From a virus, in the IMG/VR virus record IMGVR_UViG_3300021376_002797, positions 1-64,000 of that record: a DNA stretch of 64,000 nucleotides; one strand, given 5' to 3'. The notes below the pieces were generated by a model. That model ran no database searches, was not told the DNA's origin, and worked only from the letters and a program-made list of their open reading frames with translations. Within the stretch, counting starts at the first letter, position 1; every line of letters begins with the position of its first letter. Shown here piece by piece: positions 26,662-60,853 of this stretch. The translations under genes and the position numbers were made by a program.

Positions 26662-26692
26662 TAATAAAATTTTTTTCTAATATTTATTATTG

Positions 26693-28540
26693 ATGTCAAA
26701 AAAGTTTAACATAACGGAAGAAGAAAAATTATACATATTAAAAAAATATAATTTGTTAAACGAGAGTGATTATGAAAAAATAATATATACCGACAAATTA
26801 CGTAAAACTTTTGAAGGTTGTTTTGTGAAAGGAATAACACATGTTTTTGATGGTTCAAACGGACAAAAAGATTATGGTTACCAAAAGGATATTCCTGAAC
26901 TTGGTTGGGTAAAATACGAAGGTGAATTAGACGGAAAACAAGTTAAAATTCACGGTTGTTGGGATAAATTCAAAATAATAATAGGCAAAGAAACTGGTGA
27001 AAGGGGAGACTTTGATGGTAATTATTATACAAAAAGTAATAAAGCATTTTTTGAGGGAGACGAAAGTAGGGCAAATAAATTTATGTTAGGTAAACTTAAA
27101 AATTCACCTGACTATAATTTTTATGATGAAGAATGGGAATATGTTGGTTATTTTATAAATGGTATTATTGATAATAATGATATATCTTCAGAAACTATAC
27201 CATTATCATACGATGCGGGTGCGATTTCTATAGGTGAAGAAATATCACAAATAAAATTTTCAGACGGAAACATATATACTGGTAGTTTTATTGATGGACA
27301 AATAGACGGTAGAGGTACATTTATTTTTAATAATGGTTTAAGACTAACAGGTGATTTTAAATTAAATCAAGAATTTGAAGGAATAACTTATAGTGTTGTT
27401 TTAGATAATGGTCAAAAAATAAATAATATTTTTGATTATGCGAATAAATACAAATCAGATTCTAAAAATTTAACTAAGGATGAAAGTTTGGGTTTATTAA
27501 AATCAGGTATTTTACAAGGTACGACATATTATAACATAAATTTATCGGACGAAAAAGAAAAAGTTACTAAAAAAGGAGTTTTACCTAAAGCGTTTATAAG
27601 GATTACAAATTTGGAAGATAATAAAATCTTTTTTGAACAAGTTTCAGATGATAAAGGAAAGTTCACTTTTAATGATGTCCCATATGGTAAATATTCTCTT
27701 GTTTCAAACATAAATAACACTAAAGATTTATCATTGAATGTCGAATCTTTTGAATTAAAACAAAGAGTAAAAGACGTAAATATTTTCCTTAAACCAAATG
27801 ATTCATATCAAAGATTTATAAATAGAGAATTAAAAAGGTTAAGAAATCCAGAAACGGGCGGATATAGTGTAACTGTACTTGGTAGTCCTAAATTATCGGA
27901 ATTAAATAATGAAGACATTATTGAGTACTTATTTGCTCCTGTTTATTATAATGATAAAAATGATACATGGATTTCAGATATATTAAACGGTAGATTTGAA
28001 CAAAAGTACGGGACAATAACAGATAAAGAAATGTGTATTACGCAATTGAAAAATTATGCGGATTTAATTAGAAAAATACAAAATGGCGAATTAGGTTTGG
28101 AGATGGTTAAAAATGTCGGTTTAAAATTAAGACCAACAAAAAAATATATACAAAATTGTTGGAGAACTTACCCTGACGAAATGGAAAAAAGAAAATCTGA
28201 CTTTCTTCTTGTAAGAAATCCGGGTGGAGACATTATAGAATATGCCATTGTGTTGGAAAATACAAATAAACAAGATTTTTATAATAAAAATAGTATGGGA
28301 CTCAAAAATACTATATCTAGTGTTATACACGGTTATAACGAATTGAAGACAAGAAAAATTCAAGAAAACCAAATTATTAAAAATAGGTTAAATTTTGTTA
28401 TTAATGAAAATGTTGATTCAGTAATAAATTTAATAAACGAAAAAAATATACTTTTAGAAAAAGGTTATGATGAGGATTTAATAAATTACAATTACGATAA
28501 AATAATACAAAAAAAATATCGCAGTGTTGGCGGCGATTGA
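26693..28540 (+). CDS. Leader-bearing protein with MORN-like repeats and a carboxypeptidase-regulatory-like domain
   Basis: FSDGNIYTGSFIDGQIDGRGTFIFNNG; SDDKGKFTFNDVPYGKYSL. Confidence 0.65.
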   Translation: MSKKFNITEEEKLYILKKYNLLNESDYEKIIYTDKLRKTFEGCFVKGITHVFDGSNGQKDYGYQKDIPELGWVKYEGELDGKQVKIHGCWDKFKIIIGKETGERGDFDGNYYTKSNKAFFEGDESRANKFMLGKLKNSPDYNFYDEEWEYVGYFINGIIDNNDISSETIPLSYDAGAISIGEEISQIKFSDGNIYTGSFIDGQIDGRGTFIFNNGLRLTGDFKLNQEFEGITYSVVLDNGQKINNIFDYANKYKSDSKNLTKDESLGLLKSGILQGTTYYNINLSDEKEKVTKKGVLPKAFIRITNLEDNKIFFEQVSDDKGKFTFNDVPYGKYSLVSNINNTKDLSLNVESFELKQRVKDVNIFLKPNDSYQRFINRELKRLRNPETGGYSVTVLGSPKLSELNNEDIIEYLFAPVYYNDKNDTWISDILNGRFEQKYGTITDKEMCITQLKNYADLIRKIQNGELGLEMVKNVGLKLRPTKKYIQNCWRTYPDEMEKRKSDFLLVRNPGGDIIEYAIVLENTNKQDFYNKNSMGLKNTISSVIHGYNELKTRKIQENQIIKNRLNFVINENVDSVINLINEKNILLEKGYDEDLINYNYDKIIQKKYRSVGGD

Positions 28541-28620
28541 AAAGGTAGACCAACAAGAAGCTTTGAGTAGAATCCTAGTTTCATAAACCTTAAAGAAAGG
28601 GGGGGGTGTTCCAAAATCTA

Positions 28621-28654
28621 AGAAAGGTATTCCGAAAGGAATACCTTTTCTTTT
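28621..28654 (+). terminator. Intrinsic terminator with GAAA tetraloop
   Basis: AAAGGTATTCC-GAAA-GGAATACCTTT followed by T-rich sequence. Confidence 0.85.
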
Positions 28655-28673
28655 ATCGGGGTATTTATTGTAT

Positions 28674-29447
28674 ATGGAATTTAATATCAGAAAAAAATCA
28701 ACATTACCATATTTAGAGGTGGATTTGTTTAAATCAGGAAGATTGGATTATAATTTTAAAAATACTAATTTATCTGATGCAACGATTTATTTATATATGA
28801 AAAATATCGAAACGAATGTCTATAAAATTGCAAAAGGTTTTTGTGTTTATTCTGAAGAAAGTAAATCAATTTATTATCAATTGACAAAAAAAAATACATC
28901 AGATATTGGAAGATTTGAAGTAGAGTTTAGAGTATCGAACGAACAAGGTGAAATTACACTACCATTAACTGAAAAAATTTTTGTCAACATTTTGGAATCT
29001 TTTTCAAACAGCGACTTTTGTTGTGGCCCTAATGCGGTCACCCCTGTAATCACGCAAACCCCAACACCACCAACACCGACACCAACACCGACACCGACAC
29101 CAACACCTGGACCTGCAAATCCGAATATTTACTATGGTAAATTTACAGGATCAACAATTACATCAGGTAATGTTTCAACACTTAATATTAGATATACAAA
29201 TACTGCGGTAGATACGTATGTTGATTTTGCAAATGGTTTAGGATATGGTTACATATTAATACCAACAACATTTACACAACCTTCTAATTTTGTTAATAGT
29301 GTCGGTGGATGTGATGGAATAATAATTCCAACAAATAATATAGGTTCTGTTGTTGTAAACGACATAAATGGATTCCCAGTAACATATAATGTTTATAGAA
29401 CATTTAATAGTTTTGTGGGTCAGGTATATAGTTATATGTGTATATAA
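28674..29447 (+). CDS. Virion structural protein (BppU-like N-terminus, Pro/Thr linker)
   Basis: IYYQLTKKNTSDIGRFEVEF; (TP)n linker. Confidence 0.55.
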   Translation: MEFNIRKKSTLPYLEVDLFKSGRLDYNFKNTNLSDATIYLYMKNIETNVYKIAKGFCVYSEESKSIYYQLTKKNTSDIGRFEVEFRVSNEQGEITLPLTEKIFVNILESFSNSDFCCGPNAVTPVITQTPTPPTPTPTPTPTPTPGPANPNIYYGKFTGSTITSGNVSTLNIRYTNTAVDTYVDFANGLGYGYILIPTTFTQPSNFVNSVGGCDGIIIPTNNIGSVVVNDINGFPVTYNVYRTFNSFVGQVYSYMCI

Positions 29448-41735: not shown

Positions 41736-42143
41736 TGGTGGACCTAGAGGGCTCCGACTCCCTCGTCCGGATCATCTTGTTTAAAAGACGACTACATGTT
41801 TAGGTTGGCATTTTCTAATACCCCAAAATATTTGATTTTATCTTGATCAAAAACAAGTATGGTTTGTTCTTCACTATCGTAAACCAAAAACCAATAGACC
41901 ACTCAATTTCGGGTTTAGTGGTAATCTACCTTAGTCACTCCTGTTCCTGAGCGTATGTGATCCGGCTCGCGTATCCGTAAACTTCTTAAGCTACAGTTAC
42001 TTCTTGAGTTGAGATTAGACCCAAAGTCTCAAGGTTGTTTAGCACATTGCCATTTAAAATGTGAATCAGTTTTTAACGAGATTAATTCAGTCCCGACATG
42101 CTTCTTTTATTCAACCAATGCCCGTCAAATCCAATATAGGCCC
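41736..42143 (-). ncRNA. ssrA: tmRNA
   Basis: 5' GGGCCTA pairs with TAGGTCC-A-CCA 3' including G3.U70; GGATTTGACGG; resume context TTTAAAT-GGC-AAT; tag ORF 42051-41986. Confidence 0.93.
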
Positions 42144-53010: not shown

Positions 53011-54339
53011 ATGGCAGATTTAAAACCTTTAGGTAGTGAAAAATTACAAGGTATGGAAAAAATTAACCGTATCATGGAGATTGCTAGATATAAAGAAACA
53101 CCTAAAAATTTAGTCAACGAAGTTTCATCAGTTGATTATACTATAACTTTGGCTGACGGTAAGACTTATGGTATAGTTAAAGAAAAATTAGGTTATATAA
53201 TTAAAAGTGGATTGAATGAATCAACAATGGATTATGTTGATATTATGAGACACAGAAAACACTACAGGTCATATTCTGAAGCTATGAAAAAACTAAACTT
53301 GATGGCATCTGAAATCAATAGAGTTACAGGTTATGATGAAAATATTTCGTTAATTGGTGAGCAAACTGACTTAAAAAAAAAATTCGTATTAAAACTTCCT
53401 AAACCAAAAGCAGATAAACCCGCTGGAGAAACCACACCACCAGCACCTCCTACTGGTGATATGGGAGCACCACCTGCGTCTTCTGAACCCCCTGCACCTC
53501 CTGCCGGTGATATGGATATGGGTGCACCACCTGCACCTCCTGCCGGTGATATGGATATGGGTGCACCACCTACTGGTGATACAGGAACACCACCAACAGA
53601 CGATATGGGATCACCCAATGATGATAACATGGGAATGCCACCAACAGATGATATGGGAATGGCTGAAACACCTCCACCCCCTATGGATGATATAGGAATG
53701 GAAGACGAAGGTGAAGAAGAGCCACAAGGACCAACTGGTTTAAAATCAATTCAAAAATTAACAGGTAGATTAAGTCAAAAAATTCGTGCCTTTGAAAAAG
53801 AAAAGGGTATGGATTCTCAAGACATTAAATATGTTTTAAATTCAATAATTTCAGCATTAGAACTTGAAAACTTAGACGAAGACGATAAAGATGATATAAT
53901 CTCTAAATTTGACGAGTCTGATGAGTATGGTGAAGAAGGTGCAGGAGAATTGGATTTAGGAGATGAAGATACAGGTATAGAAGATAATATGGATATGGGT
54001 AATGATATGGGAGGTACTCCACCCCCACCACCAGCAAATAATATGATGGAATCAAAAGTAGATAAATTATTAAAATCATACTTCAAAATTTCTGAAAAAG
54101 AAAAACCAATTTTAGAAGAAAAGAAAAAGAAAGACTTCTTAAAACAAAAACTACAAAGACTTGATGTAAAAAAAGAATTTGTAAAATTAAGTGAAAGTTT
54201 ATCACAATTAGAAGCGGCAAACGAATTTCACAAAAAATATAAAAACGCTAAATTTATTGGTAAAACAAATAAAGAAAATTTAGTTTTTGTTGTTGAAGGA
54301 AAACAATATAGAATAACACCAAGAGGGAGGGTTATATGA
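53011..54339 (+). CDS. Hypothetical protein with Pro/Gly/Asp-rich linker (head module)
   Basis: 442 aa; includes a 39-bp tandem repeat at 53491-53568. Confidence 0.8.
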   Translation: MADLKPLGSEKLQGMEKINRIMEIARYKETPKNLVNEVSSVDYTITLADGKTYGIVKEKLGYIIKSGLNESTMDYVDIMRHRKHYRSYSEAMKKLNLMASEINRVTGYDENISLIGEQTDLKKKFVLKLPKPKADKPAGETTPPAPPTGDMGAPPASSEPPAPPAGDMDMGAPPAPPAGDMDMGAPPTGDTGTPPTDDMGSPNDDNMGMPPTDDMGMAETPPPPMDDIGMEDEGEEEPQGPTGLKSIQKLTGRLSQKIRAFEKEKGMDSQDIKYVLNSIISALELENLDEDDKDDIISKFDESDEYGEEGAGELDLGDEDTGIEDNMDMGNDMGGTPPPPPANNMMESKVDKLLKSYFKISEKEKPILEEKKKKDFLKQKLQRLDVKKEFVKLSESLSQLEAANEFHKKYKNAKFIGKTNKENLVFVVEGKQYRITPRGRVI

Positions 54340-59873: not shown

Positions 59874-60124
59874 TAAAATTTTTCAAATCATTACTCGGTT
59901 CGGGCACCCAAACACTTTCTTCAAAAAGATTTACAGGAATTATTTGTGTTATTTCGTTAGTTATTGCACTATTTGTTTCTATGTTTTCTGGAGGTAAATA
60001 TTGTGCTAACGACGGATTGGTTGAGGTAGTTGGTTTATTAGCATTCGGGTCTTTGGGATTAACCTCAACAGAGTCTATTTTTGGAAAAAAATACGACAGT
60101 GATAAAAATCAAGAATCCAATTGA
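59870..60124 (+). CDS. Small two-TM membrane protein (holin-like)
   Basis: SSKRF followed by two hydrophobic helices. Confidence 0.6.
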   Translation: MIKFFKSLLGSGTQTLSSKRFTGIICVISLVIALFVSMFSGGKYCANDGLVEVVGLLAFGSLGLTSTESIFGKKYDSDKNQESN

Positions 60125-60297
60125 TTCTTTTGTTTATATTTTGCTTTTTTAATCTGAGCCCTTCTTTTTACGGAGGGTTTTTTATATTCTTGTCTTTCTT
60201 GTAGTTTTTGAATTTGTTTAGTTTTATATATTTTAAATTTATATAACTTTAAGGCCTGCTCAATCGACTTTTCATTTTTTACTTCAACTATAATCAT
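60109..60297 (-). CDS. rpsU: Phage-encoded 30S ribosomal protein bS21
   Basis: MIIVEVKNEKSIEQALKLYKFK...ERQEYKKPSVKRR; TATTTATA upstream (60317-60324, minus strand). Confidence 0.9.
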   Translation of the reverse strand: MIIVEVKNEKSIEQALKLYKFKIYKTKQIQKLQERQEYKKPSVKRRAQIKKAKYKQKNQLDS

Positions 60298-60342
60298 AAA
60301 TTTTTTTGGTTTGAAATATAAATATAAGTAATTTTTCAAATT

Positions 60343-60373
60343 TTGACAACATATAAAAATTTTATTATAATTG
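60343..60373 (+). promoter_or_regulatory. Host-type promoter
   Basis: TTGACA-N17-TATAAT, which also reads as TTTG-N20-TATAATTG. Confidence 0.6.
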
Positions 60374-60403
60374 TAAAAAACATAAACTTGTAAGGTATGA
60401 AAA

Positions 60404-60853
60404 ATGAAAAAAGGAAAAACATCAAAATTAAACATTTTTGATGATGCAAAATGTCACTACGGAACAGTGGACTCAAAAGAATTAAGATCACTGTATATAG
60501 TATTACAAACATGGGTAGAACCAATAGTCGATGGGGAAAATTGGACAAAAATAACAGGATTAATTAAAAGACAAATTTTACACACATTATTGGAAGTCGT
60601 TGATTTTACAACTTTTGAAAAAAAACAAATAGTTGATTTAGATTTAAGAACAAGCGGAATCCAAAGAAACAAAAAAAGTTTTTTAAACTTAGAAATTACA
60701 TTATTTGTTCATAATAATAAAACAGATTTTAAATCACTAATTTTACGTTCAAAATTAAAAAAAATCATATCATCAGTATATCATGATGATTTAAAAAAAT
60801 CAAAGTATTTTACTTTAAGCCTTACAAAAAATAAAGAAACACAATTAATATAA
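60404..60853 (+). CDS. Hypothetical protein
   Basis: 149-aa ORF. Confidence 0.75.
   Translation: MKKGKTSKLNIFDDAKCHYGTVDSKELRSLYIVLQTWVEPIVDGENWTKITGLIKRQILHTLLEVVDFTTFEKKQIVDLDLRTSGIQRNKKSFLNLEITLFVHNNKTDFKSLILRSKLKKIISSVYHDDLKKSKYFTLSLTKNKETQLI

Follow-up and report, generated by a model that had tools for sequence, protein, structure and literature searches.

A start-less complement of the Bacteroidota 16S rRNA tail in a conserved element at the 3' end of a phage gene

In Bacteroidia the anti-Shine-Dalgarno sequence (anti-SD), carried by the 3' tail of the 16S rRNA, is reported to be hidden in a pocket formed by bS21, bS18 and bS6, and an extended Shine-Dalgarno sequence (SD) is described only on rpsU, where it is read by ribosomes free of bS21 (PMC9976891). 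On rpsU mRNA a 13-bp SD-anti-SD helix excludes bS21, and 65% of replete particles lost the protein (PMC13000457); the hidden anti-SD, the extended SD of rpsU and the exclusion of bS21 are also reported in PMC13000453. In this setting a short intergenic stretch of a phage genome raises a question: what use could a phage have for a long complement of the 16S tail with no start codon behind it? The stretch lies in 64,000 nucleotides (nt) of DNA (hereafter the window), the first part of the 95,278-bp IMG/VR virus record IMGVR_UViG_3300021376_002797, and the original prediction had described it as a non-coding element, 28515..28654, in a phage that encodes bS21. We report here that it is a conserved, single-copy, structured non-coding element, which stands at the 3' end of one gene family and has an unpaired core complementary to the 16S tail. 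From these features we infer that the element is transcribed, that its core is accessible and binds a target, and that it may have an effect on bS21.

A conserved non-coding element behind one gene family

The 20-mer AGAAAGGGGGGGGTGTTCCA, to which attention had been drawn, stands at 28594-28613 (+) and is unique in the window on both strands at up to 3 mismatches; none of 100 shuffles gave a match to it. It is placed in a 133-nt gap between the stop codon of an open reading frame (ORF) of 616 aa (26690..28540, +) and the ATG at 28674 of a 257-aa gene. The stretch is indeed richer in GC than its surroundings (0.34-0.38 over 28500-28649, against 0.16-0.29 in the nearest flanking windows), and a terminator scan confirmed the strong terminator after the core, a GC-containing hairpin (28622-28649) followed by a U-run, as is typical of intrinsic termination; the scanned region held 2 terminator-type sites, versus 0.2 expected from shuffles. 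At SD spacing ATG, GTG and TTG are all absent, as had been stated. The only start candidate, GTG 28606, abuts the G-run of the core; its frame stops after two codons in one relative (L350), is destroyed by indels among the others, and no frame is conserved between groups. The element is non-coding.

Read from 5' to 3' on the forward strand, the element starts with a hairpin, P1 (GAAGCT...AGTTTC, 28557..28582), which has a loop of the G-GUAG-A type and was found both in the minimum-free-energy fold and by RNAalifold. It continues with an invariant ATAAACC (28583..28589), the core AAAGAAAGGGGGGGGTGTTCCA (28592..28613), which contains AGAAAGGGGGGGGTGTTCCA, is unpaired in the consensus fold and, by its duplex with the 16S tail, resembles an extended SD without a start, and an invariant ATCTA (28616..28620). 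It ends with the intrinsic terminator (28620..28654), in which the arms GGTATTCC/GGAATACC and an extended A/T-rich base precede the T-run. The length of the G-run, for which a check in the reads had been advised, was upheld only in part: contigs assembled from the lake runs X1 and X14 have G8, but those of X13 break at the run, and a roughly 95%-identical strain from another year (run X24) has a run two shorter (G6). Among the sequencing runs found to contain the stretch, none is of RNA.

A blastn search with 26690-29447 gave no match in the phage GenBank collection. Relatives were first reached via the downstream protein, which led to 4 related contigs, all with the same intergenic element; the family was then widened by pattern scans, and the final pattern was built from motifs common to the members, with AAAGAAAGGG, ATAAACC and ATCTA fixed. 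This pattern occurs in 63 viral contigs of IMG/VR, which belong to freshwater phages of the bS21 type with genomes of about 300 kb, versus 3 hits in 596 Gb of bacterial genomes; these three are chance-like, none having the hairpin or the terminator context. Two loci similar at first sight (L148 and L152) were dropped as members for their coding-like context. Of the other scans, that with AAAGGGAGGTGTTC gave 99 loci, 12 of them in the family, and that with ATAAACCN{2,6}AAAGAAAGG at least 116, with 16 of the matches listed in the family. The exact complement of the 16S tail, GAAAGGAGGTGTTCC, occurs at 115 or more loci in viral contigs, most of which are ordinary SDs directly before an ATG; among those listed, none has the architecture of the element. 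Alignment A1, in which the invariance of ATAAACC and ATCTA was read, comprises 44 unique viral versions and the window (45 sequences), and counts of loci refer to 46 unique family loci. Since the sequences are related by descent, the shuffle and permutation figures for the family overstate significance and are not probabilities.

The members share one layout, namely P1 (the loop usually G-GUAG-A/U), ATAAACC, 2-6 nt, AAAGAAAGGG with a run of G/A, T(G/A)TTC(C), ATCTA, and a terminator hairpin with its T-run. The G-run varies from 4 to 8, the commonest core being GGGGGTATTCC, and the GGAGG expected in some relatives is present: AAAGAAAGGGAGGTGTTC (GGGAGG) stands where the window has G8. The proposed check for conservation and covariation, made with RNAalifold and pair counts on the 45 sequences, was positive. 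Only P1 and the terminator were predicted, with the middle left unpaired, and changes on both sides were found at 8/8 pairs of P1 and 9/10 of the terminator, in which 92% of cells are paired. In a slightly extended structure two-sided changes occur at 17/18 pairs, and 85.7% of cells are paired, against 66.1% in shuffles (0/500 reaching the observed value) and 41-56% after sliding of the partners. Within the middle stretch no other covarying pairs came to light, and a pseudoknot of the P1-loop GUAG with AUCUA was discarded, as it shows no compensatory change and members with GUAA loops still have AUCUA. A covariance model of the family (R1) found one strong copy in each of five large relatives (G001-G005) and in the window's record (84-118 bits), the next-best matches per genome having E above 0.02; the second match in G001 is a plain terminator and not a second copy. 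In Rfam 15, no family reached the gathering score over 28440-28720, and the best match (E 0.33) covered the terminator only.

As to its position, the prediction allowed for a 3' untranslated region (UTR), and this placement was borne out: the element always lies 3' of a same-strand gene, at what would be the end of the upstream transcript. In fact, in 46/46 loci ATAAACC is preceded, at a distance of 13-155 nt, by the end of a same-strand ORF of 198 aa or more, and 40/45 upstream proteins fall in one BLASTP cluster. When relatives were retrieved by the upstream protein instead, the RNA was found behind 25/25 homologues, in 24 with the exact pattern and in one (L535) in a degenerate version, ATTAACC ... 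AAAAAAAAGGGGATATTCC. In the group-C alignment these proteins share only 21-29% identity with the reference, whereas the RNA core hardly varies; the RNA is conserved far better than the flanking proteins. On the other hand, the next gene differs among the 46 loci, being a convergent HNH-type gene in 20, a homologue of the 257-aa gene in 11, and something else in the rest. Moreover, of the 102 ORFs in the 95-kb record that are 100 aa or longer, 24 have a motif (A/G)TATTTAT in the 40 nt upstream, where 0.024 would be expected per stretch. The motif mostly stands 4-5 or 13-15 nt before the ATG and is probably a promoter element of the phage, from which leaders would be very short. It occurs directly before the ATG of the 616-aa gene (26677-26689) and, as GTATTTAT (28661..28668, outside the RNA element), before the ATG 28674 of the next gene, but was not found before the element. 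Since a same-strand gene is always upstream, the downstream gene is variable and the promoter motif is missing, the element is most simply read as the 3' end of the upstream gene's transcript and not as the leader of the next gene.

Pairing with the 16S tail and the bS21 setting

The Bacteroidota tail given in the prediction, lengthened to a 20-mer, was found in more than 120 genome records, which, among the matches listed, are mostly from Bacteroidota (Flavobacteriaceae, Flavobacterium, Polaribacter, Bacteroidales and Cytophagales for the most part, and often small rRNA-sized contigs). With this tail the window's element forms 15 contiguous pairs at -24.9 kcal/mol (RNAduplex), where about 12 or more had been foreseen, and it exceeds what is taken to define an rpsU-type SD, namely at least 9-13 consecutive pairs and a free energy below about -13 kcal/mol. 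When all 38,100 30-nt windows of the 95-kb record, both strands included, are ranked (mean -4.6, sd 2.6), the segment 28586-28615 comes first. The second-best, 53659-53688 (-), at -22.5 kcal/mol, is antisense to a forward-strand ORF and probably due to chance.

The complement is a property of the whole family. The 45 unique members pair with the tail at -17.1 to -29.8 kcal/mol (mean -22.8), whereas permuted tails average -9.1 kcal/mol and 0/300 reach the family mean; the complement is kept in all three groups and spans the entire tail, including a TGTTCC opposite GGAACA. Because AAAGAAAGGG belongs to the search pattern, the segment that the pattern leaves unconstrained was tested separately against the nine 5' bases of the tail, and gave -9.1, versus -3.2 for permuted 9-mers (0/500 as good) and -2.0 for shuffled segments (0/200).

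The phage also encodes bS21, as had been supposed. The gene (60109..60435, -) matches PF01165 at 60130-60288 (E 2.4e-11), probably starts at ATG 60296, which would give about 62 aa rather than the 108 aa of the ORF, and lies 31 kb from the element; its leader is A-rich and, unlike that of host rpsU, has no SD. bS21 was found in 4/5 large relatives (3/4 of those at least 90% complete). In the genomes from the tail scan, strong extended SDs (-20.4 to -22.6 kcal/mol) stand in 3/5 Bacteroidota rpsU leaders, one of which reads AAAAGAAAGGAGGT and closely resembles the phage core; the complementarity of the element to the 16S tail equals or exceeds that of these leaders.

We tentatively favour, at somewhat short of an even chance and from comparison of sequences, a start-less "super-SD" that would pair with the liberated anti-SD of host 30S subunits and, in the window's subgroup, also with a mimic of the 16S tail in the phage RNA GOLLD. 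The element would be the structured 3' end of the mRNA of the 616-aa gene, and may also be processed into a small RNA. Between P1 and the terminator it would expose a purine-rich stretch, a copy without start codon of the extended SD that Bacteroidia hosts use only for rpsU. Its general target would be the host 16S tail on 30S subunits in which this tail is free, either because they already lack bS21 or because they lose it when the long helix forms, as happens with rpsU mRNA. Such an RNA may dock on ribosomes as a decoy or modulator and so disturb the bS21 circuit of the host, with the phage providing a bS21 of its own that is SD-independent. The same stretch could, in the window's subgroup, also pair with the GOLLD look-alike, which could sequester or regulate the element.

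A possible partner in GOLLD RNA and the rival explanations

GOLLD is, to our knowledge, a large phage-associated RNA of unknown function. A search for RNA partners of the element in the 95-kb record returned only its own antisense strand, and a candidate site at 841-870 was rejected as it lies inside a plausible 110-aa gene. In the relatives, a degenerate tail-like search gave a match in G003 upstream of a GOLLD RNA (RF02032, 277 bits). GOLLD was then found in all five large relatives (G001-G005, loci L565-L569), and not in the window's record, which is 32% complete. In G002 and G003, which are near-complete and belong, as the window does, to subgroup A, the genome's own element is complemented by a site that precedes the Rfam core of GOLLD by about 430 nt, with duplexes of -33.0 and -31.7 kcal/mol and 19-20 contiguous pairs. 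No such site occurs in the GOLLD region of G001, G004 and G005, which represent the other two groups, and whole-genome partner scans of G001 and G004 showed nothing distinct elsewhere. The best partner hit in G001, a complete relative of 321 kb, is a terminator in an ORF-free region of roughly 680 bp with short repeats (G001:C1:205617-206300), and was discarded. Ten further fragments (26-71% complete) included none with both GOLLD and the element. An intermolecular duplex of element and site is predicted in G002 and G003.

The site is part of an insertion, about 85 nt long, that separates a conserved 5' hairpin from a conserved GGGCCGTGTATGGTCC, and about 90 nt upstream of the site there is a box, TAACTTTG, which we take to fit the -7 promoter consensus of Bacteroidetes. 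The insertion is missing from G001, and its place is taken by other sequence in G004 and G005. The site pattern, TAAC(0-2 nt)C(T/C)CCCTTTCTTTAA, matched 64 viral loci (L570-L633), 46 of which have the same GOLLD-5' context (25 unique versions); GOLLD followed 410-450 nt downstream on the same strand in 20/20 tested. The look-alike of the 16S tail in this 5' part reads AACACCTCCCTTTCTTTAA, and the motif AACACCTCCCTTTCT equals the 16S tail plus one extra C, a counterpart of the additional G in the GGGAGG elements. The local fold predicts the site to be half-paired, its partner being an A-rich run farther upstream. A metagenome scan for sites with a longer C-run, matching the G8 of the window, gave 36 hits, none in GOLLD context.

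These data raise the possibility that the element serves only as the partner of the 5' part of GOLLD in a phage RNA-RNA pair, acting in antisense, tethering or joint assembly, and that its SD likeness is secondary. We consider this doubtful, although it deserves real weight. Besides the pairs of complementary element and site in G002 and G003, and the conserved context of the site, the complementarity goes beyond the reach of the 16S tail, as it includes a block, TTAAAG, of bases that cannot pair with the tail, and in one subtype the complementarity consists of two blocks, one being the 3' arm of P1, TTAGTTTCA, and the other TTAAAGAAAGGGAGGTGTT, while ATAAACC is looped out. Element and site subtypes also correspond: in G002 an element with GGGGGG meets a site with CCCCCC, and in the sample-matched pairs L385/L620 and L396/L579 each member is the best or joint-best partner of the other. 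In addition, the window's element would pair with the site type of its subgroup at -38.7 kcal/mol (44-nt site window) to about -42 kcal/mol (longer windows), and thus outpairs its duplex with the 16S tail. However, the elements of G001, G004 and G005 keep the tail complement although these genomes have no site, and that of L361 pairs with the tail at 17/17 positions, with one G-U. The conserved TGTT that follows the G-run in G002 can pair with the 16S tail and not with the GOLLD site, while in G003 the element's GGGGGG faces CCTCCC, which is a G-U and not a covarying pair. The complementarity could, moreover, stem from an inverted duplication, and the window's own record holds no GOLLD. We therefore favour the super-SD, because the tail complement is family-wide and copies host rpsU, whereas the GOLLD site is found in one subgroup and is itself tail-like.

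The two pairings could also be parts of a single scheme, which we regard as a rather unlikely extension. The phage would imitate the SD/anti-SD pair with two RNAs, in which the super-SD would pry the 16S tail from the bS21/bS18/bS6 pocket. By driving out host bS21, or by capturing subunits free of it, the super-SD would starve the rpsU circuit of the host. The ribosomes opened in this way could take up the phage's SD-independent bS21. The GOLLD mimic would then be a timed antidote or sponge, or its duplex with the element could be a platform that binds bS21. If true, this would give GOLLD a first molecular partner and phage bS21 a mechanism.

An ordinary 3' UTR with its terminator, in which the conserved parts would be a protein-binding or a stability/processing signal and the anti-SD complement would be a by-product of a purine tract balancing the U-tract, appears decidedly improbable. 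It would explain why the element always follows one gene family and ends in a terminator, and why ATAAACC, ATCTA and the GUAG loop of P1 are conserved yet stand outside the pairing with the 16S tail. It is also consistent with the core of subgroup A, which is a near repeat of the terminator 5' arm, AAGAAAGGT(A/G)TTCC, and with another terminator of G001 that has an SD-like arm. It does not readily account for a complement that covers the entire tail and not the purine run alone, for an unconstrained segment that beats 500/500 permuted 9-mers, for a site that ranks above all other windows of the record, including those at other terminators, or for the resemblance of the core to host rpsU leaders.

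A working SD for the 257-aa gene or for a tiny AUC-UAA ORF, or an attenuator controlling terminator read-through, is very improbable: ATC with TAA or TAG does follow the core by 8-10 nt in most members, with the terminator 5' arm directly behind, and the next gene is co-directional in subgroups A and B, but ATG 28674 lies 60 nt past the core, beyond the terminator and a promoter-like motif of its own, at 20/46 loci a convergent HNH-type gene comes next, and a conserved co-directional gene is lacking. AUC is not a regular start codon, and ATCTA is followed by C or T in 7/45 members (A or G in most), giving TAC or TAT and no stop, so that a start-stop reading is not general; it was dropped, together with a ribosome-sensed attenuator.

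Several observations weigh against the super-SD as well. The tail used is the general Bacteroidota one, and that of the phage's own host may differ. With a G-run of 4-8, most members need a bulge or G-U pairs to match the tail, and the commonest version, GGGGGTATTCC, has one A-C mismatch to it. The anti-SD is occluded on replete Bacteroidia ribosomes, 2/5 host rpsU leaders have no strong SD, and G003, although 96% complete, has the element and no detectable bS21. Because AAAGAAAGGG, ATAAACC and ATCTA were fixed in the search pattern, the invariance of these motifs and part of the energy statistic are due to the way in which the members were gathered. The two features of the GOLLD site reported above, its stronger pairing in the window's subgroup and its match to bases outside the reach of the tail, count here too.

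Two short stems specific to the window's subgroup, ATCGC 28518-28522/GCGAT 28533-28537 and GTTGG 28526-28530/CCAAC 28550-28554 (28518..28554, +, read from the sequence), straddle the stop codon TGA 28538-28540 of the 616-aa gene. By eye, both are kept in relatives with other letters (TTCGT/ACGAA, CCGTT/AACGG, TACCATC/GATGGTA), and the place of the stop codon varies inside a similar Y/F-R-x-V-G-G-D reading (L002-L005, L037). These stems could be RNA structure or a read-through context. For the 616-aa protein the only Pfam matches, MORN and transthyretin-like, were weak; neither Pfam nor PHROGs was informative, and the protein atlas yielded no usable match. At L337 (2568-4015, -) and the 19 other loci with HNH-type endonuclease genes, one or two of these are convergent to the element, and they are likely mobile insertions beside its terminator. 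Beyond the 257-aa gene, the window contains the gene of a collagen-like protein of 1056 aa, and a transfer-messenger RNA (tmRNA) gene was found at 41736-42143 (-) (Rfam RF00023, 83 bits, full-length model match).

Comparison with known systems

Because CheckV rates the record 32% complete, we take it as a fragment of a phage of roughly 300 kb. Freshwater Bacteroidetes phages with bS21 on the reverse strand have been described, with genomes of 293-331 kb (Chen et al. 2022, PMC9723584), and the lineage studied here fits them in a size of about 300 kb, low GC, lake-water origin and a reverse-strand bS21 among forward-strand genes. The main text of PMC9723584 does not mention UTR, non-coding, terminator or tmRNA, so the RNA is undescribed there; in the literature searched, mostly at abstract level, neither a start-less SD RNA of a phage nor a tail-like motif in GOLLD was found.

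With GOLLD (RF02032) the element is connected through the predicted partner site, which belongs, in the relatives, to the same transcription unit; the element itself is not GOLLD, having no Rfam match below E 0.33. The look-alike in the 5' part gives GOLLD a candidate partner that can be tested.

A start-less SD is known from a different context. The STAB-SD of the Bacillus thuringiensis cry3A mRNA stabilises the message via 30S binding; it is situated near the 5' end of a Firmicute mRNA, where it blocks 5' decay. In both cases an SD-like sequence without a start codon may hold a 30S subunit, but the phage element would be at the 3' end of an mRNA, and the ribosomes of its hosts normally disregard SDs. 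The element is thus no STAB-SD, because it stands at the wrong end, after the stop codon and before the terminator.

For the two-RNA scheme, the nearest precedent by analogy is P6 of OLE RNA, reported as an intramolecular SD/anti-SD mimic for which binding of bS21 was shown (PMC12054373). Both would be duplexes of non-ribosomal RNA that mimic the pairing of mRNA with 16S rRNA, in systems where bS21 is involved as well; in OLE, however, the two strands belong to one molecule, whereas the phage duplex is predicted to join the 3' UTR element to a second RNA, GOLLD, in its 5' part.

The closest resemblance in sequence is to the extended SD of rpsU itself. Both are found in the SD-blind setting of Bacteroidia and have near-complete complementarity to the tail, 9-13 bp in rpsU, as reported (PMC9976891, PMC13000457), and 15 contiguous pairs in the element, with host leaders reading AAAAGAAAGGAGGT and the element AAAGAAAGGG(A/G)GGT. 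As it has no start codon, the element is not an rpsU initiation region; it is phage-encoded, has no rpsU ORF, occupies a 3' UTR ahead of a terminator, and has a conserved hairpin and additional invariant motifs on its flanks. Since the extended SD of rpsU, which serves the autoregulation of bS21, is the only known use of the Bacteroidia anti-SD in initiation, a phage lineage that carries bS21 and keeps a start-less copy of the same signal under what appears to be strong selection may offer a handle on the purpose of phage-encoded bS21, and on how phages could reprogram the composition of the ribosome.

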